Below are positions 2,257 to 62,472 of a stretch of 64,000 bases of DNA, piece by piece. The stretch is taken from assembly GCA_024137785.1 (NCBI GenBank), contig JAHRHZ010000017.1, positions 10,727,990-10,791,989 on the forward strand, read 5' to 3'. Source of the DNA: Ginglymostoma cirratum (taxonomy: Eukaryota). Below the pieces are notes generated by a model. It saw only the letters and a program-made list of their open reading frames with translations. It did not search any database and was not told the DNA's origin. How positions within the stretch are numbered: the stretch's first letter is position 1; each line of letters opens with the position of its first letter. The position numbers and the translations under genes are program-made.

Positions 2257-2875
2257 ATCAGAGACAAAAGGTACTGCAGATGCTGGAGAATCCGAGATAA
2301 CAAGCGTGGGGCTGGATGAACACAGCAGGTCAAGCAGCATCACAGGAGCAGGAAAACTTGANNNNNNNNNNNNNNNNNNNNNNNNNNNNNNNNNNNNNNN
2401 NNNNNNNNNNNNNNNNNNNNNNNNNNNNNNNNNNNNNNNNNNNNNNNNNNNNNNNNNNNNNNNNNNNNNNNNNNNNNNNNNNNNNNNNNNNNNNNNNNNN
2501 NNNNNNNNNNNNNNNNNNNNNNNNNNNNNNNNNNNNNNNNNNNNNNNNNNNNNNNNNNNNNNNNNNNNNNNNNNNNNNNNNNNNNNNNNNNNNNNNNNNN
2601 NNNNNNNNNNNNNNNNNNNNNNNNNNNNNNNNNNNNNNNNNNNNNNNNNNNNNNNNNNNNNNNNNNNNNNNNNNNNNNNNNNNNNNNNNNNNNNNNNNNN
2701 NNNNNNNNNNNNNNNNNNNNNNNNNNNNNNNNNNNNNNNNNNNNNNNNNNNNNNNNNNNNNCCCTTCATCAGAAAATCATTTTCTGATGAAGGGTTTAGG
2801 CCCGAAACATCAAGTTTTCCTGCTCCTGTGATGCTGCTTGACCTGCTGTGTTCATCCAGCCCCACGCTTGTTATA
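2257..2875. mobile_element. Penelope-derived fold-back (palindromic) mini-element with hammerhead core; spans a 400-N assembly gap
   Basis: The arms are reverse complements. Direct repeat CTGGAAACTGG at 2246-2256 and 2876-2886 (TSD). CTGATGA-AGGG-TTTAGG-CCC-GAAAC at 2784-2808. Confidence 0.85.
2362..2761. other. Assembly gap (400 N)
   Basis: Run of N in the sequence. Confidence 1.
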
Positions 2876-3859
2876 CTGGAAACTGGTGTCAGGCACTGAT
2901 GGGTTATTCTTCACAGGGCACCCTGGGCACAGACTAAGCTGCAAAAGTGAGGCAGGCAGGCAAAATTTGCACCCCCGTGGCGATATCAAACCTTGGCTTG
3001 AGGATGGACACTGTATGCAACCCTCATGTAAAAGGCCCACAGGAATGGTGTCTGACCTGACTACCGCTTCTGCATTGGGTGTCTGAAGATGAGGAGCAGA
3101 TTATGTACATACGTTGCCCAACTCCTTCGGTATTTCCAACAGATTGGTTTAGCTTTCACCAAGTAAAAGAATGCCAATCAAATAATAAGTACCCCACCAT
3201 GACTTGCAATGGCTCTTGGTTTCTATTGTCTCAAATTTTGGTTTGTGAAGTATTCATTGATAAGGATTAAATACAGGAATAAATGAATTAAAGCACTGTT
3301 AACACTGTACAGTACTTGATCTTGTTTTTAGTGACTGGACTTTTGCTGCCTTTCTGTACATTCACCCAGAAGAACCTGTAGTTTCAATGAAACACCCATT
3401 GACCGCGGGAAATAGTCTCTGGATTCCAGGAAAACATCACGGTGCGCCAGCCAATAGGCATCGACCAGCAGCGTCACAATGGAGAGGCTGTGGCTGACGT
3501 CAACTCGGATGTGCGCGCCGGCAAAACAGGTTCCGGGCCTCGCTCCCTCCGCAGTGGTGAAGCGCCGAGAGACTACCCAGAAATTACGTCACGGCATTTC
3601 CCCGTCCCCGTTGCGAAACCCGGAGTGTCACCTCGTGCAGCCAGAGTTTGTGAATCACGGAACAAATCGAAAGAGTGATCCCGGGATTTGGGCGCCTCCG
3701 AGGTAGATTTCAAGGCGTTTTCCTCGCCGGTTTTTGTTGTTTTGGGGCGGATCTATATTCTGAGGCGTGTTGATACAGCACGTTGTCCTGTGGGGTTAGG
3801 CGCCGCGCACTGCGCCTGCTCCTTTCTTTTCCCCATTTTATTTTTTGTTTCAAGACAAG

Positions 3860-4063
3860 ATGGCGGCGGGTGAGGGCATTCTGATCGGAGACAAGGTTTA
3901 TTCGGCTGTCTTCCTGACTATCGACAATTCCCTCATCCCCGAGGAGAAGCTCTCACCCACGCCGTCCATGCAGGATGGCCTGGACCTGGAGGTGGAGACC
4001 GACCTGCGGATCCTGGGCTGTGAACTGATCCAGTCGGCCGGGATCCTGCTGCGTTTACCGCAG
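3860..4063 (+). CDS. CCNL1: Cyclin L1 coding exon 1
   Basis: ATG 3860; MAAGEGILIGDKVYSAVFLTIDNSLIPEEKLSPTPSMQDGLDLEVETDLRILGCELIQSAGILLRLPQ; donor GTGGGT at 4064. Confidence 0.97.
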
Positions 4064-4178
4064 GTGGGTGGATCTTGGCGGGCTCCGGCTCAGGCCGCGA
4101 CGCGGAGGCCGCGCCTTATCCTCGTCTCTGGTTGCTGACACTCTGTTTTCTATGTCCTTTCTCCCCTCCCCCCGGCAG

Positions 4179-4253
4179 GTGGCCATGGCGACAGCTCAGG
4201 TTCTTTTTCAGCGGTTCTTCTTCTCCAAGTCCTTCGTTAAACACAGTTTCGAG
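4179..4253 (+). CDS. CCNL1: Cyclin L1 exon 2 (75 nt)
   Basis: Polypyrimidine tract and CAG acceptor; VAMATAQVLFQRFFFSKSFVKHSFE; donor GTGAGT. Confidence 0.97.
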
Positions 4254-5508
4254 GTGAGTCCCATGGGCGGGCCGCTCGGCGTCAAGTGGGGGAGGGGGAA
4301 CCTCTGGGCCGATCCATTCCGTTTTCTGGATGGTTTGAATTCGATCGTTTTAGCCCAGCTTCGGCCGAAACCACCCGGAAATGGAGGCCGGGTGGAGTCG
4401 GTCAACCAAAATGGAAGTGATCCACCGTTTAAGGGTGGGTGGGGGCGGGGGGATAGGAGAGGCATCTTCCCCCAACGTGGGGGTAGCGTGAGGATCGCAA
4501 TTTCAACTTTTAAACATACTCTGAATACGTGTGGTGTTGTATTCTTGCCGTTAGATTAGGTTTGAAGTGAAATGGGTCTAACGTTTCAGATTCAGTATCT
4601 CTTGTGGTAAACGTAAGTGGCTGTTTGCGATGTAGCTAAATTTGATGGCGCTGATTTGTTTTAATTCTTCATTGCCTTGGTTACATAACCTTCGTGTTCT
4701 TGTCTGACAGATTACTGTTTTTTATGCGATCTTCAGTTGATCTTTACATTAGTTACTTGGAATGGGTTTCAGTGAGTTTTAAAAGTTCCATCACAATTTG
4801 TGACGTGGTGCTTCTGATCACATGCTTGCATACCGTAGATTGTCTTTTAGACATCAAGTAAGGAATAGAGCAGAAAGGGGGAAATGAGTGGGTAATGAAG
4901 GTGGATTCAGTTTTTATGCCAGTGGTAACCACCAGGGGTGTCAGACAATTTGAACTGCTGTTAGTGATCTAATGACCTCTGCTGTAATCATTGATCCTCG
5001 AACTACATTTTATTCATAAACCTCAAATGTAGACAGTGGAAACGTTTGCCTGCATTGCAGGAGAATAAGAGTCTTCTGATGCTGATCTAAGCACTAGTTT
5101 CAGCAGGATTCCTTCCTCGTACTTCCTCAAACATGCAGTTTTGTGGTGTAGAGTTTAAGCAAATCTTTGTACAGTTATGCTGTGACTTCTAACCCTGCTT
5201 TAGCTTCACTCCTACGCAATGCTACTTTAGGTTAGTGATCTTTCAAACTTTGGGTTGTGCCTCATGCTGTGGTATAACACATGACGCAAGATGTTTAGCT
5301 TTAAGAAAAAGGTTAACATTGCCTTATGTTGTGAAGAGAACAAAAGGTGCTACTTAATCTCTGGACGCCCAAATATCAATTTGCCTTTTGAAAGATGGCC
5401 TACAAGGATTGTTTTAAGTGGTATGTTGCTTTTACTGCAAAGTATCCACTGACTGTGGAGTTAATATTTTGGTCAATTAGCTGGTAATCGAAATGATTCT
5501 TTTTACAG

Positions 5509-5618
5509 ATTGTTGCAATGGCTTGTATCAATCTTGCATCCAAAATAGAGGAAGCACCTCGTCGTGTGAGAGATGTGATAAATGTATTTCATCATTTGCG
5601 CCAGCTAAGAGGCAAAAG
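5509..5618 (+). CDS. CCNL1: Cyclin L1 exon 3 (110 nt)
   Basis: TTTTTACAG acceptor; [36 protein letters not shown] (cyclin box); donor GTAAGC. Confidence 0.97.
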
Positions 5619-6612
5619 GTAAGCCCTTTTCTTCAAATCCAGTGTTTCTTAATATTCAAAAAAAAATTCCTTAACTTGACCATGCTTTCAGGGTTCCTCC
5701 TCATCATTTGTATCTGATCTTCACTGTTGACCGATTGAGGAAAACAGTGATGCTATGAGGTATACTGATCAGCATAGTCCTGGTACCACTGCTGCTATAC
5801 TTGGTCACAGTGGCAAATTTTGGGGAAGGATGAACAGGAAGAATGTATTACTGCCCAGTTATTCCTGCTAGAATATGCTTGGGGCTGGCATAAAGTTTGT
5901 GATCAAGTAGCCTGCTAATGCTTCTGCCCTAAGCTGTGGAAGACAAATGGTGACTTGTGTAGTGCAAGTGATTTCTCACAGAAATCTCTACTTAGTGAGT
6001 TGTAATCCTTGAACACAAATTGGAGCGAGCATGAACTCAAAACAAAAATAACAATGGCTTGTCTGGTGAAAGGAAATTTTGTAATTTAGATTGGGAATAA
6101 AACATTAATTAGCACAAATGAGAAAGTTAAGGTAGGAAGTCATAGTACTTTTGAGTCATACTGTTAAATTCATAGCTGCTGAACATCAAATTAAGTTAGA
6201 GAATATTTCTCTTTTGCCATAACATTCTGAAATAAGGTGGACAAGAATGATGTGTCATTGTTAATGAACTTTGTTCTGTTGTGATCAGGTATAATTGTTT
6301 TAAGTACTGTATAGGAGTGTTGCTGTTGGAGGGAGACTGGGTTTCCTTCTGAAGATTGCACTCTTCTTGTATAGTGTCAAGTTCCCAACCTAAAGTATGG
6401 GCTCTACCACTGGGACTTTGAATTTTGTTATAACAATGTAAGTGCAAGGAGGGAGCAGACACACATTGGTTTCTTTTGTAACTGAGACTGAAACAACTGA
6501 TATAAAGGTACCTTCACTTAGCTTGCAAAATTGCTGACTGAAGTGTGGAAGTTTGAGAATTAATCAAATAGATGAGAGGAACTCGAGTAAAACGAACTGA
6601 CAATGTTCTGGA

Positions 6613-6799
6613 ATAGTAGGAACTGCAGATGCTGGAGAATCTGAGATAGCAAGGTGTAGAGCTGGATGAGCACAGGCCGAGCAGGAAAGCTGACATTTCG
6701 GGCCTAGACCCTTTCTGAAGAAGGGTCTAGGCCCGAAACGTCCGCTTTCCTGCTCCTCTGATGCTTCTTGGCCTGCTGTGTTCATCCAGCTTTACACTG
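6613..6799. mobile_element. Penelope-derived fold-back mini-element with hammerhead core, in CCNL1 intron 3
   Basis: Inverted arms around ...GACCCTT-TCTGAAG-AAGGGTC...; CTGAAGA at 6715-6721 and GAAACGTC ending 6742. Degenerate 15-bp TSD TGACAATGTTCTGGA (6598-6612) / TGATAACATTCTGGA (6800-6814). Confidence 0.85.
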
Positions 6800-7500
6800 T
6801 GATAACATTCTGGATCTCATTGAAGTGTTCATGAGTTATGCAATATTTTGATGCTATTTCCCATCTCGGAGGAAGGCAGCCTGGAGACGCCGGCACAAGG
6901 AACACATAACTAAAAACTTGGCAGTATGAGTCTGGGTGCAGAAGGGTGTTAGACCTGAATCTATTTAAAACTGCTCTGAATACATTACCACTATATGAAC
7001 ATGTAGTAGGAAAACAAGAAATAAGTTACAAATGTTGATTTTCTAAAGTGCGAAGAGTTGTAAGAAATGCTGCATTGTTAGAATTTGTATATCTGATTAA
7101 TTGAAGCTAGTAACTTTTAATTCCATAGAAATGTGTAAATGGGAAAATGGAACAAATGATTTCTTGAAATTGAAAGGCTGCTCGTGATCGGAAATTTAAA
7201 TTCTTAGCCTGTTATGTCACTGTGTGTGGGGGGGGGATGTTGGGAAAGTGCATTCCCTTTTCACTATATTGACTAAGTGGTGTATCGAGATGAATTCTTT
7301 GTTTAGTCAAAAAAAAAGTGACAGGGCACAATTTCACTAGCTTTAAGCAAAAAGCCTTGGTAGAAAATTTTGTCTTGAGTAACACGAATGTAAAAATTTT
7401 TCTTGGATTACTTCTTACTGTGATCGTTTTTACTATTGTGCATGAAGTTAAAATGCAATATTGACTTTTATTCTTTTTTCCCTTGCAACCAACCTAACAG

Positions 7501-7540
7501 CGACCAACTACATTTACCAAAGACTGGGTGATGTGGAATG
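7501..7540 (+). CDS. CCNL1: CCNL1 alternative premature-stop (poison) exon in intron 3, cyclin L1-gamma-like
   Basis: Acceptor ...CCTAACAG at 7499-7500. Spliced to exon 3 it reads S-D-Q-L-H-L-P-K-T-G-stop (TGA 7529-7531). Donor GTACGT at 7541. Matches the recalled human isoform tail SDQLHLPKPG. Confidence 0.88.
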
Positions 7541-8169
7541 GTACGTAAAGATGAAGCTGTCGACATGGCAACAGTGAAAATAAGAAGTGCCGTTTGATCC
7601 CGATGGAGAACCAGTGCTCTTTGAACGGGTCACTGGAATCGGGGGCTTTGGAAGGTTGGGCACAGCACCATTAAAACCTAGGAACTCCTGTACTTGGTTC
7701 TCAGCTTTTTGTCTTTGCTGTCCAGATGGTACCATCACATTTTTGCCTTGGTTTTTTAGTCATCTATTCTGAATGAGAGGGAGGTTAGTATGCTTCTTCA
7801 GAAATTTAAAGCTTGGAATCACTTTCTTTTCCAACTTCTTAAAATGGCCTCTGAAAGCCTGATTTAGTGAAGTGCTGGAGAAGTTAGATCAATGTGCTTA
7901 TTTTTATACATTCCTTGAATTTTAATACTTAGTTTAGAGAGTAAAGATTGAATTTGTGGAAAAATAAGAATTTGCTAGGGCTGTCATTCATCATACATGT
8001 CCTCATACATTTTGAACTTACGTAAATAGGTTCATCTTGCTTTATGTTCGATGCAAAAATTGTCCAAAATATGGCAAATGGATTCTGGTTGGGGTGACAA
8101 ATTGGATGGAATTTTTATCTTGCAAAAAGTATCTTTACTGAGTCAGGCTTGGATATTTAATGCCAACTG

Positions 8170-8840
8170 ACAAGTTTCAACAAGTGAAGTCTGGCAGGCA
8201 TCTGTGCAGGGATGTCTGTTTTTACAGTTATCAATGACCTGGATAGGGGAAGTGAAGGGATAGTAGATGACACACAGATAGTTAAGCAACGATGTTGTGA
8301 AGAGGTCATAAGGAAGATGCAGGTGTATGCAGATTTAATGAGTGAGCAATGAGTGAAAAGCAGCCCTTTATTGCAAGAGGAATTGAGCATAAAGATAAGG
8401 CTGTTATGTTTCAGTTATATAAGACATTGAGACCACAACATCCGTACTATGCAATTTAGGTCTCAAGGTCAGAAGTGTTTTATTTATTCATTTGTGGAAT
8501 GTGGGTGTCGCAGGCTGGCCAGCATTTCTTGCCCATTCCTAGTTGCCCTTGAGAAGATGGTGGTGAGCTGCCTTCTTGAACCGGTACAGTCCTCCTGTGG
8601 GTTGACCCACAATGTTATGAGGGAGGATTTTGGCCCATGAATGTGAGTGCATGGTAGTGTTTCGGAAGAGGTTTATTAGATTGATACCTGTATGTAATGG
8701 GCCCCCTTACAGGGAAAGATTGGAGCAACTAGGCTTGTTTTCACTGGAGTATAGAAGAGTGACAGGTAACTTTTTGAAGTATATCAGATGCCAAACAGAC
8801 CTGATTGTATGTGGAATCGATGTTTCCTACTATGGTTGAG
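8170..8840 (+). mobile_element. Highly decayed CR1 LINE fragment with an inserted SINE/LINE tail (about 8487-8640, minus)
   Basis: RKRFIRLIP..YRERLEQLGLFSLEYRR motif; attcatttgtggaatgtgggtgtcgcaggctggccagcattt tail in reverse. Confidence 0.7.
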
Positions 8841-10289
8841 CGATTAATAGCCATCTTACACTGCCACTAAACTTATTGTGAGTGCAGCCACATTTCCTTG
8901 GAGTGTCAGAACTACAGAAAGACTGTCCAGCAATGAAAGTCCAATAGCGTGGAGAGATGTACCTAAGTTTGCTGAATCAAACTTTATTGTATCGTTATCT
9001 TGAAAAGATTTATTCTTGGTGTTGAATCTCTGTTGATAAAATCTTACCTGAGTTAATGAAGAAATGGTGCTAGATCAAACAGTTTTCAAATTCAAATTGG
9101 TAAGCCAATGCCTGGAAAATCCTGGTCAATAAGTTAGGAAGACTGGAGGCATTGAAATGATATATGTTAGTACTGGTGTAGGCAAACTTCAACCTATACC
9201 CCTGAAAATGGTGTTAAGTAATGGTTTAGAAACTTAAATGGCTGAAGGTAGGAATGTACCTAAACTTGTTCAGACCAAAATAGCAACAAGAAAATTGACA
9301 TCAAAGCGCACTAAATTTTGGAAGATTATGTTCCCAGAGTATCTACCATTCGCAATGTTCATTGGTAAAATAGAATTTGTGGCGAATCAGTTTGTAGCGC
9401 CCTGCACTACCAGTTTTATTTAAATGCGTTGTTTGTAGATTTGGATTTTAACGAAGTCTGTATATCACAGACATTTTGCATGGAATCAGAAAAAAATAGC
9501 TTAATGCTTTTAATCCAATACAAAAAGTGTAAATTGCATTTTAAGTATCAGCATATTTTCTTCTGATTCCTGAAGGGTGAGGATTAAGACAAGTGTATGT
9601 ATAGATATGATTTGCTTTCTTTTTAGGTATATATTTTAAATCTATTTATTTGAATGTGTAACAGTTTAAGACAATATTGAGATCATTTGCAGTGCGGATT
9701 GAAAAGTACAGGGAAAATAACTTGTAGGGAAAGAAATTGTAATTACTGCACAGCGACTTAACATGGACAGTTTCCATTATAGATTGCACATCCCACATTC
9801 CTCTAAACAGAAAACTTTGCACTGACAAGACAAAGCAAGCTCTTCAGATAGTTACTGGTAGATGGATAAATGTGCAACTGTTATTTAAAATTGATTTTAA
9901 AACTTTCGTTATGCATATTTGCTATGAATTTTTCATTTTCTCACTTCAGCTTTTGGGGAGTGAATCCATGAGTAAAAACTTTGTGTCCTAAAAGTGTCTT
10001 CAGGTAGTGACATTTGATGAATTGGCTATGGGGACCGCACTACTAACAAGTGAGATCTTTGCCAATATTTACCCAAATCATAAGGAAGAACCCACCCAGG
10101 CTGATATTTTTGTTTTTCCTCATGCTTTCCTACCAAATCCATTTTTTTGCAAATACTGTCTTACTGAGCTCGGCCTAGCTTTAAACCACAGGGCTGCTGG
10201 TGTGTACTTCCCAATGTTGCACACAGGTAGTGGTTTTATCAATCTTCAGCATTAGACAATTAATTTAGTCAAGAAGAAATAATGTAAGC

Positions 10290-10352
10290 CTGCTCCTGCT
10301 CCTATGATGCTGCTTGACCGGCTGTGTTCATCCAGCCCCATGCTTGTTATCT
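10290..10352 (+). mobile_element. Truncated copy of the Penelope-tail mini-element
   Basis: Matches 2820-2874. Perfect 11-bp TSD ATAATGTAAGC at 10279-10289 and 10353-10363. Confidence 0.85.
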
Positions 10353-12673
10353 ATAATGTAAGCTCATCAGTCTGTTGCACATTGATGGAAACCTAGCATA
10401 TCAGCTCCATATTGATGACTGGTAAATGTTTAAGTGTCAGTGCTACTTGGAAAATTGCTTATTTACCTGTGTAAATATTAAACTGTTGGACACAAGTCTC
10501 TAGCTAAACCATTCAGCTTTAAAAGTTAAGAAATTATGATAAACTTTGTAGTTTAACAGTTTGTATCTGAAAAACCATTCACGCATTTCCGTGTCTTTAT
10601 GAATTTAAATAGTAGGTAAGTGAATGTGTGGAAAGTGAAATTCTTCCGGTAAAGTTTCCAAAATCCAAAGTATTGTCAGTGTGAATAATTGCAAATTTTA
10701 TTGAGAGAGCTTTTCACTGAATTACTTCTTTTACAAATTACTGATTTAGTGCTTAGAAGTAAATAGAATAGCCAGTCTGAGTAGCCCTAAATAGCAGTTA
10801 CAAAATCATTTCGACAAGCACTGTTGACAGTATTAGCCTCTGCCACCTTTTAATTTCAGCTTGGCAGAAGAGAATGAATCCAATTTCAGGGATACAAACA
10901 GCCTTTTAGAGTTTGTGTCATGTAATGTAGAAATGTATAGGTCATTGTATCATAGGCATTTTTAAAAAAAAGTATTAACAAATATTTCAGTGCGAACAAA
11001 TTTCTACGGCCTGGATTTCTAACTTGCCAATGTATGTGATCTTTTTGGTGGCTTTTTCTGTTTAGTAACTTTCCTCAGTGCCCTTGCATGTAGCGCCTTA
11101 ATGCTTTTAGCCTTTCATGTAGATTTTGGGCATAAATTTATAAAATGTAACTTTTCCTATCTGAAGTATTTCATTACCAACTTAAATGTTGCTGCCTGGA
11201 TGGAGTGTGTTAATGAGACTGTCCTGAAGTCCAGTATTGCTAGTTGGCTGCTGATTATTCTTCCTAATGTGCTAGCCTTTCATGTAAAGGTCAGTTTTGA
11301 TTCACTGACCATTCAACTGGTAACTTTAAAATCAACAATCAGTTTAGCACCTTCCAGTGCGTATGAATGTATGCATTTTCTGAATGTTAAAATTCTGTAG
11401 AGGACTCTGAAAAATCTTGTTTAGAAGTAGAAGGCAGATAGGATAACTTTCTAATTATGAATCTGTAACTGTTGAATCTGTAGGAAATAATGTTAAAAAC
11501 ACATCCGAAGAAGTGATTTATATAATAGATCTGTAGGGCTATGACGGGTATAAAATGTAGGTGTTGCTTTTTAATGTTGACCTTAGAACCGATCTATTTT
11601 GAGCCCTTGAATTAATCCTGAGAGCTTTGCCGTAACCACATGTTGAACTGCCACAGCACTGAAATCTAACATGCAGTGTCTACAAGCTCAATTGATTCAA
11701 ACAGAGTTTTAAGCCAACTTCTTGAAAAGCTAACCTGAGCTATTTTGCCCATGGTTAATGTATAGCATCAGTAAGTGTAGCTGCGTACAGTGTAAAAATA
11801 CTCGCTGTTAACTTTTTTAAAAACACGCTTGGAAGGAACAACAATCAAGCCTTAATGTCAACAAGTGCACCTCTACATAGTATAAATTTGGAGTTTAGGC
11901 AGGTGTAGCTTGCAGGTGAATAGCAGCTTTATTTTTTTTAAGTGACTTGGAAACGTTTGGTCAAAAAATACAGTTGATTTTCTTGGATGATTTCCATGGG
12001 GTGAATGATGCAGTCCATGTCCAAACAAAGTAAAAGTAAGAGTATTCTAAATTTTAAGTGTTTTACAAAATGTATTTTCCATGGTTTAAGATGACAACAT
12101 TGGAAAAAAGACTTCTAGTTGTGTGCCTTTTTGAGCAGATTGGCATCAGAAGAAAGAACAAAAGCATAAAGTTACGTGAAGAGATTATGATCAGAATGAC
12201 GTTTGCATTGTGCACTTGAATTGTATCCTAATTGGCAGGTCTTCAGCGATTTGATATTTATTGTAGCATATGAGTATGATGTTGATTAAAATGTGAAAAT
12301 TAAGAAAATGCAAATGGTTTAGTTTTGAATTTATGTAGATATGCTGTGTAATTCTTAGTATATGTTTACAAAAATTACTAACCACCAATCTAATTTAATA
12401 GTCTTATTTCTTGGATAGGCTCAACTACTCTAGACTATTATTTCCCTCATTGCTGGTGGTAACTGCAAAACAGGCTGTTCAGCATATTTGCTGCATAATT
12501 TTCAGTTTGAAATGGACAGCACAAGACCAAGGCTTTGGAGGCAGTTACAGGAGTTTCTTCTGATGGTTGGTTGGAAAGGAAAAAGGCCCTTTTGAAATAG
12601 AGTATTAGAAGTACAAACTAATTGCAAGTGTTTCTGTTTTAGACTGCAAATAGTTTTAATTTTTTTAAACCAG

Positions 12674-12794
12674 GACTCCAACACCACTGATACTTGATCA
12701 AAACTACATTAACACCAAAAATCAAGTGATCAAAGCAGAAAGACGAGTGCTAAAGGAATTGGGATTTTGTGTTCATGTAAAGCATCCACACAAG
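12674..12794 (+). CDS. CCNL1: Cyclin L1 exon 4 (121 nt)
   Basis: CAG acceptor; [40 protein letters not shown]; donor GTAAGT; phase fits exon 3. Confidence 0.97.
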
Positions 12795-12901
12795 GTAAGT
12801 TGGTAGATACTTGAATTTTCTTTTGTATAGAACTGGAAATGTAAGGTTTTTTTTGTTCTTAAAAAAAAAATAACCTGTTTTCCCCCTCTCCTTATTTCTA
12901 G

Positions 12902-12966
12902 ATAATATTTATGTATCTTCAAGTGCTCGAGTGTGAAAGGAATCAAACACTTGTCCAAACTGCCTG
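12902..12966 (+). CDS. CCNL1: Cyclin L1 exon 5 (65 nt)
   Basis: TAG acceptor; IIFMYLQVLECERNQTLVQTA(W); donor GTAAGT. Confidence 0.97.
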
Positions 12967-13259
12967 GTAAGTTGCTTCTTTGACTTGGTAAAGCCATGGA
13001 AACTGTATGTGGAATTGAAATAATGTGTTTAAGATTTGTAGTGTATATCAAATTTAATCAGCTAAAAGTTCTGACTTTTGTATCCGTACAGAATTGGGTG
13101 CACGTTTCAGTGTATGTTTTCAAAGGTGTACATTTGTACCTTAAACTTATGAACATGGTACTGTAATTTCTGCATACTGTTTTCATGGCTTGTTTGTTCA
13201 GTATCATAAAGGAGAACTCAATTTAACTTTGTTCTTTTTTCTACTCTTTTTAATTAAAG

Positions 13260-13284
13260 GGTAGTCCATGATGGTAAGTCATAG
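13260..13284 (+). CDS. CCNL1: CCNL1 alternative premature-stop exon in intron 5, cyclin L1-beta-like; includes a 14-nt micro-exon 13260-13273
   Basis: Long T-tract and AAG acceptor. Reads W-V-V-H-D-G-K-S-stop (TAG 13282-13284). Internal consensus donor ATG|GTAAGT at 13274. Matches the recalled human isoform tail VVHDGKS. Confidence 0.9.
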
Positions 13285-14728
13285 AACTCAAAGAACTCTG
13301 CCCTCTGAACTGCTTCTCAACTTCATGACCTAAGGATGGCCTTTGATTGGCTACCCCTTCAGCCAATCCAGTGCAAGCTCTCATCCGAGACAGCTATTCA
13401 CTGAAGTGGTCACAAAACATCTGGCAACATCATCTAGTTCTGGCGGGGTTTTGAAGGATTTGTATTGACTTCTGGATATTCATCACGTACTTCCAGTAAT
13501 TTAGATTATATATCGAATGTTTCTAGTCAACTAAGTTTTAGAATGTGAAATTTTAAAGCATGTTGAAGAGAAGGACCTAAATCACGTTAATTGCTACAGC
13601 ACACTGTAAATATTTAACTGGTACAGATAGATATTGCAGCATTCTCATTATTCCCAGTTTTAAACTGTTTTACGGGCTGCAATCTAAACTTGATTAGACC
13701 TTCCAACCAAGAATTCTGTGGATGTTTCCTGGATGAACGTAAATTTAGCTCACTGCCTGAGCGTGGTCTGGGTGGAAGGGAAGCAGATGTGGCTTTAGGA
13801 ATCTGACAAGTGAGATTTCTAATGCAATTGCTCCTAATGTTTTTAATTAATCTCTCGTTTTAGTTATTTGGTGTAGTTAGTTTGTAGATTGCTGAGTTAT
13901 TTCTTCACCAGTTCCCTATATACTAATGCAAATTCTTTGATAAATGGGAGGTGCCATTGAATCTATTTGTCTTGCATTCAACACAAGATACTGAATTTCA
14001 AAGGGAACAGCGAATTACACTGAGACAACATATTGCATGTGCTATAAAGTTGGCCTTATCAACAACCTTGTAAATGGAGCACAAGCCATTTGCTTGCTGT
14101 GCCAGCTTGATGTTGAACTCTGGTGCATTAAAACAGTTCCAGCTTATCTCGGTGAGATAATTGCTTACTGAATATTGTGCAAGTTGATGACTGGGATCCC
14201 AGCTGCTATGTTTTAAACTTGTGTTCAGTCTACATCAAATTACACTAGAAGGATAAAGAACATGAAAAAGGTGTGACCGAAAGTGATATTAGTCATTTTA
14301 CACAGTATTGATATGGTTAGTATTCTCTAACAGCGTACGCAAGTAAAATTGAATTTCTGTGTGATGCCAGTTCCATGGATCACATATATTAATTACAGAT
14401 GGATTGTATCAAGCAGCACACCTATTCACTGTCCATACCCCTCCATCCTGTGCTTGGAAAACTGACCACAGTGTCCAACTTCTGATGTGATTATGCATTT
14501 GAGCAGTGCTAATCTGAAGTGCAATTCTTGCCACACTGTCGACCAATTACATATTCAATTCCTCAAGCAATGTGGCTTATGTATAATTGCTTGAAGTTAC
14601 ATGTATTCGTGGAGGGCTTGACCGTCTGCATATGAAATAAGTGGTGTTTACAGTTCCCTGGTGCAGTCTCCAGAGCAGTACCTCGACCATTAAGCTTTGC
14701 CAACCACTTAGCACCCTGTTTGACAGTA

Positions 14729-15008
14729 TCATAGAATCCCTGAAGTGTGGAACAAGGCCATTTGGCCCTGTGAGTCTGCACCAACCCTATGAACAGCACT
14801 CCCCCCTACCATTGCCCCACATTTACCCTGTCTGTTCCGCCTAATCTGCACTACTTTGGACTGTGAGGAAACTAGACTTCTCCGCAAGAACCCACACAGA
14901 CGTGGAAAACTTGCAGACCCCATTCAGGCAGTTACCCAAGACTGAAATTGAACCCAAATTCCTGGCGCTGACAGGCAGCAGTGCTAATCACTAAGGCACT
15001 GTGCCACC
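14729..15008 (-). mobile_element. HE1/V-SINE, near full length
   Basis: Minus strand starts ggtggcacagtg.cttagtgattagcactgctgcc (tRNA head), carries the V-domain gtctgtgtgggttc...cacagtccaaag, and ends gggattctatga. Confidence 0.85.
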
Positions 15009-15636
15009 ATTAAATTGTTATTCCATTTGGTATTCTTTCATCTGTCATGATGCATGCAAACTGAAAGGTTTCATGATCGTGACATTTTCTAGCAATGATT
15101 ACGTTCTACACAACCAAGCAACTATTTTTTCTCCCTCGTCATCACATACAATTTGGCCAGAATTAGAGTTGGATGTAGTATGCAATGTGCAGGCTTATCC
15201 ACAGCATTCTTTTAATCTCAACAGACTTTTTGTTTCTGCTGCTACTCTTTCTGACCTAAACGGTTCAGGTAATAGATTGTGATTTGACCTTTTCCTTTTA
15301 TGGTTGCTCCCAATTGATTGAAGGTGTACCCCCAATCAATAAGAGTTTTTCTTGAGATAATGAGTGTTGCTATTGTGGTCATTGTGAACAATACGTATTA
15401 TTAGTGTTTAAAAAATTTAAATTTAATGTTAGTGTGATAATCTCAATCTGTAATTCAAACTAATCACGACCAAGTCAACTTTCTCTAGGCAAAATGCATG
15501 CTGTGAGTTTACATTGCACCTATGTAGCAAACAATACGTGTTCAGATTGCGGGTATGATCACTGATTAACATGAGCATTGAGATAGTGAGTAGCAGGTGA
15601 ATTGAAAGCTTTAAAAGAAAACCCATGCTTAGACGA

Positions 15637-15968
15637 GGAGGCAATGGCCTCGTGGTATTATTGCTGGACTGTTCATCCAGAGACCCAGATAATGTTCTGG
15701 GGACCTGGCTTTGAATCCCGCCATGGCAGATGGTGGAATTTGAATTCAATAAATGTCTGGAATTAAGGGTCTAACGATGACACTGAATCCATTGTCGATT
15801 GTTAGAAAAACTAATGTCCTTTAGGAAACGAAACTGCCATCCTTACCTGGTCTGGCCTGCATGTGACTCCAGACCCACAGCAATGTGGCTGACGGTTAAC
15901 TGACCTCTGGTCAATTAAGGATGGGCAATAAATGCTACCTGGCCAGCGACACCCTCATCCTGTGAATG
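15637..15968 (+). mobile_element. tRNA-derived SINE with LINE-shared tail
   Basis: A-box-like tggcctcgtgg and B-box-like tttgaatccc; tail ggatgggcaataaatgct...catcctgtgaatg. Related copies at 29335-29652 and 20990-21340. Confidence 0.8.
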
Positions 15969-17312: not shown

Positions 17313-17412
17313 GAATTACATGAATGACAGTCTACGCACAAGTGTATTTGTCCGATTTAAGCCAGAAACCATAGCATGTGCATGCATCTACCTTGCAGCT
17401 AGAGCTTTACAA
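17313..17412 (+). CDS. CCNL1: Cyclin L1 exon 6 (100 nt)
   Basis: TTTCAG acceptor; (W)[33 protein letters not shown]; donor GTGAGT. Confidence 0.97.
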
Positions 17413-17817: not shown

Positions 17818-17922
17818 ATTGTTTTACCAAATCGCCCTCATTGGTTTGTGCTATTTGGTGCAAGAGAAGAGGAAATCCAGGATATTTGCATCACGACTTT
17901 GAAACTTTATACCCGAAAGAAG
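17818..17922 (+). CDS. CCNL1: Cyclin L1 exon 7 (105 nt)
   Basis: [35 protein letters not shown]; AG and GTCAGT boundaries. Confidence 0.97.
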
Positions 17923-40885: not shown

Positions 40886-40887
40886 AG

Positions 40888-50444: not shown

Positions 50445-51712
50445 TATTACATTACAGAAATATTCCGTAGTAGCATATGTATTTTTAAGTTCAGTAGCAG
50501 TAGAGTTAAGAAACATTTCTCCAATTCAGTTCAAAAACAATACTTTAATCCATCAGGTTGAACTGACATTCCTTTTTCAGTAAACAATCTCTCCAGGCAG
50601 TAAAACAAGTCTGGGCTAAAGCGGAACCATATGTGACAGACTGAAGAACACACCCAACTGAATGCATGCAAATCAGGAACAGTGTGAAGGTGCACACATT
50701 GTACTCAATGTGATGTTACTCTGTGTATCAAAATGTTATTTTGATAATACAATACAAATAGCTTTGTAAATGATATTGACCAGGATTTTTGATCAACACT
50801 AATGCTTGCTGTGACCCATAATTTTAATGTGTCGGTGCCAGTGTTAAATAACGGCAATTAGTTAATGCATTTCATTTATCATTTAATTTAATAAAGTAAA
50901 ATAATTGATGTTTTCTCAAAATATTTGCTCATCAGACTTAATTTTGGTTTTGGTGAGCTCATCTTTCTTCCTTTTCTAAATTACTTTGCTAAAATAATAT
51001 CTCATTAAACACTGATACATAAAGTAAACGTCTTTTTAAAGAAAGTTTCTAATTAAGAATGATGGTTATACATGCATTTTTTTCTGATCACTAATGTAAG
51101 TCAAAAGAGAAATTTTAAGAAAAGGATATTCATGTTCTGTATTGCTAGCAATGTCAGCGTTAATTACTCACCTTGAATTGGCCTAAAGGAGGTGGTGATG
51201 GGCCATCTTCTTGAACAACTGCAATGGAAAGGAAATGTCACCAGAGACTTATCAGACCCTCAGGCTGCCCTCTCTCATGAGAGAGAGGTAATTGGTGTTG
51301 ATTTTACCTGAGGATCACTATACCTCGGGCAAGGGAGACGTTGAGAAATAGCATTCTTCATGGCAACTTCAGCTGGTATGGGAATTGAATGAACACTGTT
51401 GGTATCACTGCATCACAAATCAGCTAACTGATCCATCCACTGCAGTACAAAGTTCTGTTTGATACACTGGCCCAGGATTTTGATACTGTGATGGCACTGA
51501 AATTGCAATATATGACAAAATTAAGGTGGTGTAAGACTTGAAAGTGATGGCAAAACCATGCATCTGTCGACATTGTTTTTCCATTGGGTGGAGGTTGTAT
51601 GTATGTGAGTTGCTGCCAAAGAAACATTGAGCTTCTGTGGTTCAAACTGTGACCGCAGGACATAAAGCCGGGTATCCAAGCTAGTGGATAAAGTGACAAT
51701 CAAATACACTAC

Positions 51713-51800
51713 TTTCAAAAACAGAAGTTACTGGAAAAGTTCTGCCAGCATATGTGAAGAGAAATCAGTGTTAAGATTTTGGGTCTGGTGACCCTTCCTG
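51713..51800 (-). mobile_element. Decayed Penelope-tail mini-element (second family)
   Basis: Minus strand aggaagggtcaccagacccaaaatcttaacactgatttctcttcaca. Confidence 0.65.
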
Positions 51801-52419
51801 TTCTGTTGGTGGTAAAGTGACTTTGTAGAATCATGAATTTAACTATTTGCAGGGGAGTTAGACTACCTTTGACCTAGACTACTAACTCTAACATTTAATT
51901 GGCTGTTTCTGGTAAATTGTGACCCTCCACTTCCTTCCCCAGGTGTTGGTAATAGGTGATTCAACAATGATAATGCCATTAAGGTCATAGGAAGGTATTT
52001 AGCTGCCTTCTTGCTGGCAATTGTCATTGGTTGACACTGATGTGTTTGAACTTTACTTACCACCTATCGGCAAAGTCTGAATGTTCTCCAGGTTTGGTTT
52101 AAATGTTTCATTATAGCAAAAATTGTGATTGGAGCTATATGCATTATACAAAACCTGCATTTGCTGACAATGCAGAACATTGCCTCTATTTCCTGCTATT
52201 ATGTGCACGTGCATCAGCATCAATAGATGCAACTGTGAAAAAGGAATGTTAGGGAAGGACCAGATGGTGGTGGAGGAAGAACATTGTAGGGGAGGGAGGT
52301 GGTGGTGGGGAAGAGAGGATTGAGCCTGGTTGGGTGGGGAAGGGTGTTGTTAAATCCAAGACTAGGGGGTAAAGATTGTTAAGAGCAGAGAGTGGGGCGA
52401 GTGGATCGACATGATTAAT

Positions 52420-53559: not shown

Positions 53560-55139
53560 AGGCCTCTACCATATGGCTGAGTTTCTTTTCACACTGAACA
53601 ACTTCTTTTTTAACTCCTCATTTTCTTCAGATCAGGGAGTGGCCATGTGTACCCGCAAGGGCACTACTTATACTTGTCTCTTTGTGCAGTACATGGGACA
53701 TTCCTTGTTCCAGTCCTATTCTAGCTCCCATCTACATCTGTTTTGCCAGTATATCAATGATATCTTCGGTGTTGCTTCCCTCTCTTTTCCAGAATTGGAA
53801 ACATTTATAAATTTCGCTTCCAATTTCCATCCCACTCTCACCTTCACTTGGTCTATCTCTGACTCCTTCCTTCACTTCTTCAACATCTCTGTTTCCATTT
53901 CTGGGGATAGACTGGCCACCAATATCCATTATAAACCCACCAACCCCTACAGTCACCTTGACTATACATCCTCACACCCTGGTTCCTGTGAAGATTTCTG
54001 TTTTATTCTCCCAGTTCCTACATCTCCATCATATCTGTTTGAATGATGCCAACTTCAACAAGTGGGACTCTGAAATGTCCACCTTCCTCTTCAACTAAGG
54101 ATTCCCCAGCATTCTGGTTGACAAGGCCCTCAGTCGGGTCCAACCCATCTCCCGCACTTCAGCCCTTAACCCCTCCCTTTCCTCCCAGAACAGAGATATC
54201 TTACCTACCATCCCACCAACATCCACATCCCAAGGATCATTAGCTGCCATTTTAGCCAACTCCAGTGAGATGCCACCACCAGACACATATTCCCCTCCCG
54301 TCTCTTGGCAGCCTTCCGCAACGGCCATTTCCACCAGGACACCCTGGTTCACTCTTCCTTCACTCCCAACAATCCCCCCAAAGCCCCACAGCACCTTTCC
54401 CTGTAACCAGCGAAGGTGCAACACCTGCCCATTTACCTCCTCCCTCCACAGTATCCAAGGGTCCAAACACACCTTCCAGGTGAAACAGCACATTACATGC
54501 ATCTCACATACTCTAACCTACTGCATTCACTGCTCACAATGTGATCTCCTCTACATTGGGTAACCGAAGCATAGAAATCACTTCGCAGAACATCACAAAA
54601 AAGACTGTGATCTTCTACTTGCCTCCCACATTAACATACCACCATGTTCCCTGGCCAACATCTCTCTCTCAGGCTTGCTACATTTCTCCAGCAAAGCTCA
54701 GTGCAAGCTGGAAGAACAGCACCTTATTTTCCACTTGGGAACTCTACAGCCTTCTAGACTCAACATTGAGTTCAACAATTTTGACTTTGTCACACCTTCT
54801 CAAATGTCCTTACCCCAACATCCACACCTTCGGGTCTTGTTATCACGTCGTCTGCTACTGTACTCAACACATTGTTAGCCGCTAACTGTTCCCATTAGTA
54901 GTTATTCATTCTCCCAGGCTGATCATAATCTAACCCTTGCCCAACTGCTCTCTCTCTTTGGGCTCTATCTCCACCTATCACTTCCTCTTTACCCCCTACC
55001 TTCTGCATAAAACAAGCTTTTCCTAGCTACCATCAGGTCTGAGGAACAGTCACTGGACCCAAAATGTTAGCTTTGATTTTTCTGCACAGATGCTGCCAGA
55101 CCTGCTGAGCTTTTCCAGCAATTTCTGTTTTTGTTTCAG
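53560..55139 (+). mobile_element. Penelope-like retroelement (second lineage), decayed RT plus GIY-YIG plus tail
   Basis: LTLNNF-like FTLNNF, QGVAM.TR.G..Y.CLFV, YINDIFG, IHYKPT, TYCIHCSQCDLLYIG and LEEQHLIFHLGTLQP. Tail has a degenerate CTGAGGA...ACCCAAAATGTT. Confidence 0.9.
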
Positions 55140-58310: not shown

Positions 58311-60889
58311 GTTAGAGAGGTGTCTGAAAACTTAGACACATTAAAGTGGATTAATTTATTTGTTCATTCATTCTTCTTCTTAATCATTCATTGTAAAAGG
58401 AAGGTTCCCTTCATCATTTTCACTGTTAAGGCAGAATTAACCACTATGTAAATTAAGGCAGAAATTCCTGCTAGTGCTACGACAGGATACTGCTGCATGA
58501 TCAGAAGAGGTGGTAAGGGAGTTTGAAAGAGAGGTTAGGATATATATCACTCTAAAGGCCTTGACCACAATTAGTAACGTTAGCAGGCAAATGGTTTGAG
58601 TCAGTAACCTCTCCCTTTGTTAGAGGAACCCAGATCCTTTACCAGTACTTCCTGGTGTCCATTGTCACTTACCAATAACAGTGCTGGGAAGTAGTGGGAG
58701 GTTAGACGGATGAGAGGGAAATTTCCTGATCATTCCAGTAATGGTACTCCTCCAACTTCATACTACCTATGCGCATATTAGGAAGCACTTCTATACACAA
58801 AGAATGGTAATGAGTTTGGAACTCACCTCCATAAATGGCTGTGGATGCTAGATGAGTTGATAATTTTAAATCTGAGCTAGATAAAGTGTAGTTAAGGAAG
58901 TGTTTTAAGGGATAAGGGCCAAAGGCAGGTATATGGAGTTAGGCCACAGATCCAGCCATGATTTCATTAAATGGTGGTACAGGCTTGTGGCTCCTGTTCC
59001 TATATGTGATGTGTGAAAAAGGAGAAGCCAGTAGTGACTCTGAGGAGACAAGAATAGAGAAATTGTGGCTGGGGAAGTGAGATAATGGTAGCGTCACTGC
59101 CCATTCACAGCAATGATCCCACAAGATATAAAGTGGGGTCACTCAGGAGAAATCCCTCTTCCCATTATCGCTATTTATGTGCCTTTATCATTCCAAACTA
59201 CTGTAACCCCGTTTGTATGAGTGGCAATCAGCCTTTGACTGCATTACATATATTTGCTTTGAAATGTGTCTAATTGCAGCAGTGATTGCCATTGCATAGT
59301 AAATTGTGAATTAATTAATTTGTAAATAATAGTTTAAGTGATGAATACAGTTGCACATAAATATGTTTATACTTCAAATGTAAACCTATCCCACCAAAAT
59401 ATGTCATTTAAAATTCATTCATAAATCAACTTGCATTCTTGATTTCTTTTAATTTAAATTTTTGAATACATTCGGCAGATTTAATTGATCAATCACTACT
59501 TTGGTTCATTTTTAATTAAATATATTTAATATAAAACTGTAAATTGACCAATTAGTTTCATATTTCAAACATGCTAATAGTCTCATTTTTGAAACAATGA
59601 CATTTTGGTTTGAAATATGTTTTTGTTAATGTCTAGTTAAATCAGAATTGACCAAGAGAGTGTTCATAAATCTTATGCTGCAATTGAGTTTTTTAACTTT
59701 TTAAATAAAAGATCAGGCTTTGTATTTTATTATTACAGAACAAAAAGTCACAACATTGTACAGAGTGTTATCATCAGAGAACATGCAGTTCTCCTCAGCA
59801 AATGTCAGATGTTTATACCTTCCCTTAAGGGCCCTACACAACATACTCTGTGTTGAAAAAGCAAAGTGATTTTAGAAAGAGGGAGGGCATAGAAAACATC
59901 AGTAATGTGGGAGAAAAGGCAAAGAGAAGCATAAAGAACTAAAAGTACTAAAAACATTTTATAGTAATCTAATGTAAGATAGGAAGATTAGTGCAGCATT
60001 CCTCTGAGGTCATCTTCTCCTTCTCTGGTGCAGAGATTGACTGGGATAATACCTTACTGGGGCAATTCCATGTTTTAGACAATTGGATCTACCCCTTTGT
60101 GGGTTATATCTGTATGCATTCAATGCCACTTTAAAGGTCAAAATAGCAAATTTAGTCCCACTGTACTTAATAGAAGTATAGGATCTTTAGCAGGACTATG
60201 CTTTACCGGCTATTTTGTTAGATGAGAATTCCTACACAATGCTTTGAATTCTTTGATTGGAATCACTGCAAATAAACCATTTGGCAATATAGAATGAAAC
60301 ATTCAAAATACAAATACAGAATCGTGAAAGCTCCCACTTCAGTAGGATTCTAATTTGAAGTAGATTGAGAGTTTAGAAGTCATTGATCACACAAACCATT
60401 GACAACCGGTTTCGACCAAAGGATTAGCCACATCATTTCAATATAAGGATATGTAACATTCTTATTTATTCATCTATTCCCTGACTTTCAGAGACTTTTA
60501 TTTCACTTTAATGTATGGGCAGATTTGCACAAAGAGCTGTGGGGAGGAAATTGGTTGCATCTTTACTTTATTCCGCTGTGCTGAGAGTAAGTGTCGCCAT
60601 TGCCCTTCTATTTGAGCAATGGATATTGATAATTTTCAAAATGCTCTCTCTAAATTCTAGTATATGGAACTCGGCAAATCCTAATTTACAAAAATAAAGT
60701 GATCAAAGGCCTTGATTAAATTTAGGTAAGTGTAACAGCAGGTTTTACAGATAATAGTAATAATCTCTCCACTGTCCTTGAAGGCTTTCCCATAAAATCT
60801 TTGTGTAATTTTTATCTGGGTATCTGATTAGTTCAGTTAGCTAGCAGGCCAGAGTGTGGTGCAGCAAAAAAAATCAACAAAACATCAAT

Positions 60890-62472
60890 ACCCAGTGGTG
60901 GGTAAATCTTTGGAGGGGATTCTGAGGGATAGGATTTACATGTATTTGGAAAGGCAAGGAGAGTTTAGGGATAGTAAACATGGCTTTGCTTGTGAGAAGT
61001 CATGTCTCACTAACTTGGTTGAGTTTTTGAAGAAGTGACAAAGACGATTGATGAAGGCAGAGTGGTGGATATTGTCTATATGGACCTCAGTAAAGCATTC
61101 AACCAGGTTCCGTGTGGTAGACTGGTTAGCAAGGTCAGATCACGTGGATTCCAGGGAGAGCTGGCCATTTGGATACAAAATTAGCTTGAAGTTAGGAGAC
61201 AGGAGGTGATGGTAGAGGGTTGGTTTTTGGATTGGAGCTCTGAGACCAGTGGTGTGCCACAAGGATCGGTGCTGGGTCCACTGCCTTTTTGATTTGGATG
61301 TGAATAAAGGAGGTATTTTTAGTGAGTTTGCAGATGACATCAAAGTTGATGGTGTAGCGGACAGTCAAGAAGGTTATCTCAAAGTACAATGGGATCTTGA
61401 TCAGATGGGCCAATGGGCTGAGGAGTGGCAAATAGAGTTTCATTTAAGTAATTGCAACATGTTGTATTTTGGTAAGGCAAAGCAGGGCAGGTTAAATTCA
61501 TGGTAGGGTCATGGGGAGTTTTGTTGAACAGAGACCTTGAAGTGCACATTCATAGTTCCTTAAAGGTGGAATCACAGGTAGACAAGGCAGTGAAGAAGGT
61601 ATTTGTTATGTGTGCCTTTAGTGGTCAGTGCATTGAGTATAGGAGTTGTGTTGTCATGTTGCAGCTGTACAGGACATTGATTAGGCCACTTTTGAATACT
61701 GCATTCAATTCTGGCCTCCCTGCTATCGGAAAGATTTTGTGAAACTTGAAATGGGTCAGAAAAGATTTACAAAGATGTTGCCAGGGTTAGAGGGTTTGTT
61801 CTATAGGAAGAGACTAAACATGCTGGGGCTATTTTCCCTGGAGCATCAGAGGCTGCGGGGTGACCTTATAGAGGTTTATAAAATCATGAGGGGCATTGAT
61901 AGCCAAGGTCTTTTTCACAGGGTAGGGGAGGCCAAAACTAGAAGGGCATAGGTTTAAGGTCAGAGGGAAAAGATTTGAAAGGGTCCTAAAGGGGTAATGT
62001 TTTCACGCAGAAGGTGGTGTAAGTACGGAATGAGCTGCCCCAGGAAGAAGTGGAAGCTGGTGCAATCACATTATTTAAAAGCTATCTAACTGAGTACATG
62101 AATAGGAAGGGTTTAAAGGGGTAGTATGAACTGCTGGTGCTGGAGAATCTGAGATAACACGCTGTAGAGCTGGATGAACACAGCAGGCCAAGCAGCATCA
62201 GAGGAGCAGGAAAGCTGACGTTTCGGGTCGAGACCCTTCTTCTGCTTGGCCTGCTGTGTTCATCCAGCTCTACACCGTGTTATCTCAGATTCTCCAGCAT
62301 CAGCAGTTCATACTACCCCTTTAAACCCTTCCTATTCATGTTTAAACAGGGTTTAAAGGGGTATGGGCCAAATGCTGGAAAAATGGGACTAGATTAATTT
62401 AGGATATCTAGTTGGCATGCATGAGTTGGACCAAAGGGTCTGTTTCCATGCTATACATCTCTATGACTCTGC
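60890..62472 (+). mobile_element. CR1/HER1-like LINE, 5'-truncated, with a fold-back insertion in its tail
   Basis: GKSLEGILRDRIY, EFADDIKV and QKRFTKMLPGLEGL; tail ctctatgactct. Confidence 0.93.
62097..62340. repeat. 99-bp-arm inverted repeat (Penelope-tail element plus inverted host flank)
   Basis: Arms 62097-62195 and 62242-62340, two mismatches by eye, 46-nt spacer. Direct repeat AGGGTTTAAAGGGGTA at 62108-62123 and 62348-62363. Confidence 0.93.

Follow-up and report, generated by a model that had tools for sequence, protein, structure and literature searches.

Penelope-like elements (PLEs) carry minimal hammerhead ribozymes (min-HHR) in their pseudo-long terminal repeats (pseudo-LTRs), and scattered solo copies of these ribozymes have been tied to truncated PLEs in fishes, coelacanth, Xenopus and reptiles, coelacanth having roughly 4,000 of them and Xenopus roughly 9,000, opposite-strand pairs included (PMC4209133; this and all other papers are cited from their accessible parts). 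In the endonuclease-bearing (EN+) PLEs of the Neptune clade, a reverse transcriptase (RT) is followed by a GIY-YIG endonuclease with a Cys linker, and the copies show 5′ truncation, an inverted arm, an optional 30-40 bp tail, palindromic junctions and target duplications (PMC8557442; PMC3846280). Here we analysed a stretch of 64,000 nucleotides (the window) from the shark Ginglymostoma cirratum (contig JAHRHZ010000017.1, positions 10,727,990 to 10,791,989, forward strand) and found 12 PLE insertions with hallmarks of PLEs (target duplications, head-to-head inverted arms and two 3′ ends), namely nine short pieces (E1 to E9), two Neptune-type coding remnants (P1 and P2) and one Poseidon-type remnant (P3); these labels and the family names A1, A2 and B are our own. 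The insertions add a shark family to the published min-HHR class, and the unexpected point is that most of the fragments stop at the front edge of the ribozyme. We conclude with good confidence that the short pieces are solo pseudo-LTRs, dead-on-arrival insertions made by Neptune-clade PLEs of at least two families.

The seven core-bearing and two coreless short pieces and the two Neptune-type remnants had been listed by an earlier reading made from the letters of the window (the sequence-only reading), and all of them are present where it placed them. That reading had missed the hammerhead-bearing insertion P3, which is the twelfth, the inverted arms found at four of the nine short pieces, and the shared 5′ boundary. 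The exact core pattern occurs five times in the window compared to zero times in 100 shuffles, and a structure descriptor gave four matches, where 200 shuffles average 0.055. With a covariance model we found 11 core matches at an expectation value (E) of 2e-5 or below, ten of which are its training rows and the eleventh the inverted arm of E2 (6686-6723), while the next match has an E of 0.57. DNA profiles made from the copies returned 13 matches at E < 1e-7, all inside 11 insertions, and nothing further below E 0.02. An Rfam scan of the window returned no hammerhead family at E ≤ 5; its microRNA matches at 62146-62291 are the hairpin of E9, score below the gathering thresholds in every case, and were rejected. 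A blastn match at 3826-3864 was discarded because it does not align as a tail and is not recovered by the profiles.

Residue numbers (C3, A9, G12) follow the hammerhead convention. The core boxes CUGANGA and GAAA and an NUH cleavage triplet are intact in four of the 11 core matches, and four of the 11 keep all core bases together with stem II and the palindrome, the other seven being decayed or cut. The bulge after A9 is present, stem II opens with a G-C pair in 12 of 13 rows, and 94% of its cells are paired. Stem I has 3-5 bp wherever the upstream sequence is native (P1, E4, P3 and E1, with three of four pairs in P2) and is missing from five truncated copies. The palindromic minimal helix III reads ACGT in six of the ten window rows of our alignment A3 (P1, E2, E6, E9, E4 and P3). 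Complete hammerheads including stem I were found for only two core matches, P1 (40952-40987, minus strand) and E4 (22662-22705), compared to none in 200 shuffles. In its core boxes, bulge after A9, G-C-opening stem II, two-base palindromic helix III and short stem I this anatomy is the same as that of the min-HHR of PLE pseudo-LTRs (PMC4209133). A Penelope origin and a minimal type I anatomy, as first proposed, are supported by the tail identity, the matches to PLE proteins and the fit to the min-HHR consensus, whereas calling the pieces “ribozyme-bearing” was an overstatement: of the 11 core matches, nine are short of stem I or of core bases, and neither of the two complete ones has a tandem partner on the same strand. 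Nearly all of the genomic stubs would be unable to fold as hammerheads and are presumably inactive. The folding energies of four cores are no better than those of shuffles (z of -1.7 to +0.95), which is evidence neither way, and RNAcofold homodimers gave non-catalytic pairings only, a result that says little because the tool cannot model the core. Both E2 and E9 are predicted to form long hairpins, and the hairpin of E2 buries its core.

Next to the anatomy, the pairing itself is maintained. Across six independent PLE-type loci, three of them outside the window, 23 of 24 stem I positions pair, a result given by 1 of 720 strand permutations, and 32 of 36 pairs hold over all nine loci. In 13 aligned rows we counted 20 double changes, a number reached neither by any of 500 shuffles nor by slid partners, under a control that takes no account of relatedness. 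Within the Neptune families stem II hardly varies, hence its covariation is thin; of the two stems for which the sequence-only reading had proposed a covariation check, it is stem I that covaries across families. Five loci (L001 to L005) came from a scan of prokaryote genomes and have no DNA similarity to the window. In L004 (1-2583) and L005 (1-1095), PLE coding sequence lies upstream of a minimal hammerhead; L002 has a full stem I and no coding match, and these three are probably eukaryotic contigs in bacterial genome bins. L003 is without stem I. L001 (1496-1530), on a 3.5-Mb Flavobacteriales contig, resembles a minimal hammerhead whose stem I has 5 bp and may be a chance match, as we estimate about four such matches for the scan. 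Alignment A3 leaves out L001 and L003.

We then located the 5′ end of the longest arm of each Neptune-type insertion by counting from C3 as position 0, a scale on which the cleavage site falls after +27 or +29. The arms start at about -5 in E1, -2 in E2, -4 in E4, +1 in E6 and +3 in E7, E8 and E9; the others start at +24 in E5, +34 in E3, -444 in P1 and -1450 in P2. Seven of the 11 Neptune-type insertions, belonging to four sub-families, end within -6 to +3 of C3 and not at the cleavage site, and as most short copies end at this 5′ edge of the ribozyme they have no stem I. Simulating exponential truncation from two 3′ ends with six truncation means, we found that the probability of seven of 11 ends falling in any 10-nt window ranges from 0.002 (mean of 40 nt) to less than 5e-6 (means of at least 300 nt). 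Furthermore, the two arms of E1, which have different 3′ ends, stop no more than 1 nt apart. The accessible parts of PMC4209133 have no shark in the species lists and no description of the ends of solo copies; its Fig. S4, read by machine, gives N for one helix I strand in several of the large families of coelacanth and Xenopus, a lead only, given unreliable columns. Neither shark PLE hammerheads nor a 5′ boundary at C3 was the subject of any paper listed in our literature search, which covered neither subscription papers nor Repbase entries; these may hold both.

Proteins carrying the same tail give a partial view of the boundary outside the window. A translation search with E6 returned 14 proteins (P0128-P0141), one of which, P0138, is an unrelated repeat and was removed, leaving 13 with the A2 tail; the ten that were looked up are all whale-shark gene models. 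At the protein level only, the whale-shark gene models P0133 and P0141 run across E1-type junctions that lie no more than about 6 nt from C3, and P0135 and P0139 join sequence resembling a long interspersed nuclear element (LINE) at about C3. P0128 has Pro-rich residues upstream, as in the native 3′ untranslated region (UTR). As a side observation, whale-shark gene predictors have taken family A2 stubs for exons in this set.

The position of the ends bears on non-LTR retrozymes; a retrozyme-like family was, beside truncated PLE insertions, one of the two sources that the sequence-only reading had offered for the pieces. Retrozymes would spread as tandem or circular RNAs that are processed by dimeric hammerheads and reinserted. 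They are short non-coding carriers of type I hammerheads and kin of PLE pseudo-LTRs, as are the pieces described here (PMC7229834; bioRxiv 10.64898/2026.07.22.740005), and have been found in one chondrichthyan genome (bioRxiv 10.64898/2026.07.22.740005); both coreless copies in the window moreover begin no more than about 6 nt away from the cleavage site. However, what defines retrozymes is tandem units, hammerheads mostly of the canonical form and circular RNAs, and neither tandem units nor canonical hammerheads occur here. The window has no tandem array of these units and no adjacent cores on the same strand, which argues against retrozymes, and the cores are minimal in all rows rather than canonical type I with full helices. 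Seven of the nine short copies cross the cleavage site yet lack the upstream portion expected of a cleaved monomer or a circle, and for seven of the nine an origin as cleavage products is rejected. We therefore regard a retrozyme origin as highly improbable, while truncated PLE insertion is supported by the two 3′ ends, inverted arms, target duplications and sub-families tied to coding remnants described below.

Both Neptune-type remnants tie the short pieces to coding PLEs. P1 (40888-41427, minus strand) comprises the end of the endonuclease region, a pyrimidine-rich 3′ UTR, the complete minimal hammerhead 40952-40987 (C3 at 40983) and the family A1 tail. The span 40888-41407 had been taken for an RT/GIY-YIG copy; it has no RT, its endonuclease remainder (41427-41287) consists of only the last ~47 codons, and the element extends to 41427. 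P2 (53560-55139, plus strand, left end approximate) is broken and holds, in order, an RT core and thumb, a CX4CxxC linker, a GIY-YIG region, a 3′ UTR, a decayed hammerhead (C3 at 55039) and the family B tail. We place P2 in the Neptune type because its linker fits the published description (PMC8557442), and P1 and P2 together probably belong to the Neptune clade, judging by linker motif and similarity rather than by a tree. Both resemble ray and other PLE proteins that have RT and GIY-YIG matches. Two relatives of P2, P0001/P0003, match RVT_1 and GIY-YIG below the Pfam cut-offs, and the pieces of P2 itself gave zero Pfam matches; a Pfam search over 12 window pieces gave one real match, RVT_1 in P3. 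No full-length or partial-tandem PLE copy with two pseudo-LTRs was found in the 64 kb, and none is expected of 5′-cut copies.

The tails of the short copies match those of P1 and P2, as had been proposed, although they form two tail families and not one. Within family A, E1 and E3 are 95-97% identical to P1 and E2, E6 and E9 84-87%, and the family B tails are 72-82% identical to P2; the two families are distantly related, with profile cross-matches at E 1e-3 to 1e-8. Four sub-families of short copies are tied to the two coding remnants. This arrangement could also result from non-autonomous families resembling short interspersed nuclear elements (SINEs), where a few master stubs starting at the hammerhead are transcribed themselves and copied in trans by the Neptune protein. 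Short copies outnumber the coding remnants 9 to 2, A2 comprises three short copies with no coding parent in the window, the A2 tail occurs in the 13 gene models above, and putative non-autonomous PLEs are reported in the accessible literature. Yet the 5′ ends lie up to 10 nt apart and are seen again in each of four sub-families, the coding remnant P1 is closely matched by E1 and E3, and tail and inversion vary from copy to copy, as if made anew at each insertion. We consider master copies unlikely.

P3 (44621-45940, plus strand) is a broken remnant with RT and GIY-YIG and a 13-bp target duplication (44608-44620 / 45941-45953). It resembles zebra-shark proteins, and its GIY-YIG region has no Cys linker, the single basis on which we classify it, provisionally, as Poseidon type. 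Its own minimal hammerhead (45857-45898, C3 at 45861) has A in place of G12. In the related protein P0007 the reading frame continues across the hammerhead stretch with a Glu codon at the G12 position, which suggests that this relative has G12.

5′ truncation, an optional 30-40 bp tail, an inverted 5′ arm, palindromic junctions and target duplication, all of them traits of the Neptune clade, are found among the short insertions; optional tails and inverted arms of this kind have been described for PLEs (PMC8557442). Both families have two 3′ ends, at 91-92 and about 123 nt past C3 (~33 nt apart). Most insertions had been credited with target duplications of 10-16 bp: these are exact at five of the nine (E1, E3, E4, E6 and E9) and imperfect at E5 and E7, with E2 at chance level and E8 uncertain. 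In a control, 4 of 150 random pairs scored 10 or more.

In family A1, E1 is a head-to-head pair (2257-2875; duplication 2246-2256 / 2876-2886). Its inverted arm (2257-2777) bears the tail and is broken by a 400-N gap (2362-2761), and its direct arm (2778-2875) is tail-less, with C3 at 2784, one palindrome base altered and a stem I of 3 bp. Each arm begins 5 nt ahead of C3, and the arms are identical at 65 of 65 positions. The gap, the sole assembly gap of the window, falls within this palindrome at the site where the inverted arm misses 15 nt, hence the gap probably stands for ~15 nt and the element, although present over the whole span that had been given, probably measures about 234 bp. E3 (10290-10352, plus strand; 11-bp duplication 10279-10289 / 10353-10363) is coreless and tail-less and begins at +34, 6 nt beyond the first base 3′ of the cleavage site. 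It is one of two coreless pieces that had been pointed out, at 10290 and about 25602, both of which are confirmed; the other, E5, bears a tail.

In family A2, E2 (6613-6807, where 6799 had been given as the end) has a tail-bearing inverted arm (6613-6713) that ends at about +6 and has a 17-nt deletion, followed from about 6712-6714 by a direct arm with an intact core (C3 at 6715) and no stem I. Its 7-bp duplication (6606-6612 / 6808-6814) is at chance level, as 53 of 150 random pairs score as high. E6 (30658-30781, plus strand; 11-bp duplication 30648-30658 / 30782-30792) is a single tail-bearing arm with an intact core and no stem I, and its C3 (30658) is the final base of the target duplication. 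E9 (62124-62347 rather than to 62340; 16-bp duplication 62108-62123 / 62348-62363) lies within a LINE 3′ end, and its uninterrupted target site is present in three other copies of that LINE end. Its main copy (62124-62242, minus strand) bears the tail, starts at +2/+3 and has no stem I.

In family B, E4 (22619-22761, plus strand; 10-bp duplication 22609-22618 / 22762-22771) begins with a short tail-bearing inverted arm (22619-22664) and continues as a direct copy with the complete hammerhead, in which C3 is at 22669, cleavage is predicted after 22698, and stem I has 4 native bp, or 7 with the junction included. E5 (25602-25707, plus strand; 11-bp duplication with one mismatch, 25591-25601 / 25708-25718) is coreless, and its start is no more than about 5 nt from the cleavage site. 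E7 (31715-31808, plus strand; 15-bp duplication with two mismatches, 31702-31716 / 31808-31822) is tail-less, with a decayed core and a start at +1 to +3, and E8 (51716-51799, minus strand; candidate 9-bp duplication 51689-51697 / 51813-51821) is likewise tail-less and decayed, with a start at +3. On each side of E8, 12-15 nt (51698-51712 and 51801-51812) stand unexplained before the candidate duplication, 7 nt of them being an inverted copy of the E8 3′ end. Two further side observations concern the targets. E1 and P1 share their end base, and the following 11-mers (2876-2886 and, on the minus strand, 40877-40887) agree at 10 of 11 positions. CTGGA is also found on either strand in the duplications of E2 and E5; the sharing was seen post hoc, with 0.28% of positions matching, and possibly reflects target preference or priming microhomology.

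Head-to-head inverted arms are found in four of the nine short insertions. In E1, E2 and E4 the tail is on the inverted arm and the direct arm is tail-less, a difference that fits two separate priming events. In E9, the arm 62242-62313 is a copy of the 3′ 72 nt of the main copy, 62314-62341 is an inverted copy of 28 nt of the left host flank, and a 6-nt filler that resembles a snap-back on the target follows; the fold-back arm matches at 98 of 100 positions, making E9 a near-perfect 100-bp hairpin (62096-62363). Here, then, the end of the complementary DNA (cDNA) folded back and copied through its own primer into host DNA, which is a route to head-to-head repeats without an antisense RNA template and in this differs from the proposal of PMC3846280, which uses one. 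LINE-1 inverted duplications, in which a self-annealed 3′ end primes and target DNA is duplicated in inverted form, are similar, except that the LINE-1 examples in the accessible text concern the reciprocal end and E9 the cDNA end itself through its primer (bioRxiv 10.1101/2024.12.14.628481).

Under the preferred reading of truncated Neptune insertions, the parent RNA would have two internal starts of reverse transcription, which lie about 92 and 125 nt downstream of its minimal type I hammerhead. The GIY-YIG nuclease would cut the target with a 10-16 bp stagger, and one or both target strands would prime cDNA at the internal sites, giving tail-less or tail-bearing ends and head-to-head arms. 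RT may start in the 5′ pseudo-LTR copy and run off the 5′ end of the RNA just before stem I, and host repair would then join the cDNA ends and leave the genomic stubs as by-products. Because the cDNA ran past the cleavage site, the template was not cut by the ribozyme. Internal initiation is taken from Poseidon_Ac of the green anole, in which two internal starts lie 3′ of the hammerhead with the tail between them, both target strands are extended and uncleaved RNA is the main template (PMC11167929); cleavage as a dimer or assisted by protein would likewise follow the literature. One Poseidon_Ac site, 111-118 nt into an open reading frame (ORF) beginning at stem II, corresponds by our own arithmetic to about C3+120 to +126, near the +123 seen here. 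Poseidon_Ac belongs to the Poseidon clade, like P3 and unlike the short copies, and its pseudo-LTR begins 145 nt or more upstream of the ORF, with no boundary at C3 in the accessible description.

For the boundary, the likeliest cause, at somewhat less than even odds, is that the RNA has its 5′ end immediately ahead of stem I and RT runs off there. PLE start sites are described as sitting in the pseudo-LTR, and in vitro the anole enzyme reached the template's 5′ end with hammerhead mutants giving the same product size (PMC11167929). A match to the initiator consensus precedes C3 in P1 and E1, a weak sign given that 1.2% of positions match, and is absent from P2. As a wider and more speculative possibility, the Neptune transcript may start at the 5′ edge of stem I, and vertebrate solo minimal hammerheads may be strong-stop-like cDNAs, spanning the stretch between the start site and the 5′ end of the RNA, inserted alone.

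The boundary could instead be a roadblock, RT coming from the 3′ pseudo-LTR and stalling at the 5′ side of a hammerhead that is folded or bound by protein, or where splicing factors occupy an acceptor site directly upstream of it. The insertion ends scatter from -6 to +6, anole hammerhead cleavage requires protein (PMC11167929), and family A monomers are predicted to fold as a hairpin closing at C3. In D. virilis the 5′ end of helix I is where an intron stops (PMC4209133), and P2 has a pyrimidine tract and CAG|G, with AG at -4/-3, directly before the family B core (54995-55038), two points that keep a roadblock in play. However, P1 has no AG at -4/-3, and the anole element shows no stop at the hammerhead in vitro (PMC11167929). 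Since the 3′ strand of stem I has already been copied when the enzyme reaches C3, a stop caused by folding is expected at +28 to +33, where only the two coreless copies fit. We judge a roadblock to be somewhat unlikely.

Several points weigh against run-off and, more generally, against truncated Neptune insertions with a shared boundary. The boundary rests on 11 insertions in one window, and the 10-nt width was picked post hoc, for which the scan simulation allows under the exponential model only. The offsets are uncertain by 1-4 nt, and by more in P2, since P1 and P2 are the only copies with known native sequence upstream. Eight of the 13 protein matches give no verdict, as the boundary is masked by predicted splicing, which may itself make the join. 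The sequence upstream of C3 in P2 resembles a splice acceptor and not an initiator. D. virilis Penelope has its start site at 371 and its C3 at 496, so that the start precedes C3 by ~125 nt if the two numberings are equal, hence a start at the ribozyme is not general. Among four window loci, stem I pairs at 15 of 16 positions and 2 of 24 permutations do as well, so that window-only covariation is weak. Finally, a search for target duplications at P1 and P2 found none.

The host context was annotated for the part of the window left of 23 kb; overall, the window has 39.5% GC and a single run of 400 N. Coding exons of cyclin L1 extend from 3860 to 22139 on the plus strand: the cyclin L1a protein of the shark Mustelus asterias maps to plus-strand exons from 3860 to 22076, with 98% identity to the exon at 18045. 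E2 and E3 are intronic, and E4 lies 80 bp beyond the AATAAA at 22539. Co-option of such elements by the host, for example of E4 in helping cyclin L1 termination, is conceivable in that E4 is one of the two complete hammerheads, is on the strand of the gene with its cleavage site 159 nt past the AATAAA, and has the hammerhead fold as its lowest-energy predicted fold. This energy is nevertheless no better than that of shuffles (50 of 200), E4 has no partner copy, and minimal monomers did not cleave in published tests (PMC4209133), which leaves co-option barely credible. The inverted arm of E4 also brings a second AATAAA, at 22624, near that of cyclin L1.

Among the other repeats, 3′ ends of several LINE families lie at 155-799, 27757-29059, 33940-34410, 41752-42150, 47331-48232 and 60895-62462; we presume that they are CR1-like. 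The sequence adjoining the 3′ end of P1 (40777-40876, minus strand) resembles the head of a SINE derived from transfer RNA. Retroelement matches carry names from devil ray, zebra shark and whale-shark gene models, and like the cyclin L1 match they mark the window as DNA of a cartilaginous fish.

The boundary offers a mechanistic lead on how PLE pseudo-LTRs and inverted arms form and on what the hammerhead does. Its position at C3 and not at the cleavage site indicates that the template was uncleaved and suggests either a defined RNA end or a block. If strong-stop-like cDNAs are indeed its source, they would explain the missing stem I, the fixed length of pseudo-LTRs and arms, and the LTR-like look of PLEs. 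In such genomes, counts of minimal-hammerhead motifs would mostly be counts of truncated fossils, and the hairpins of such PLE copies leave gaps in assemblies and give rise to spurious calls of microRNAs or exons.

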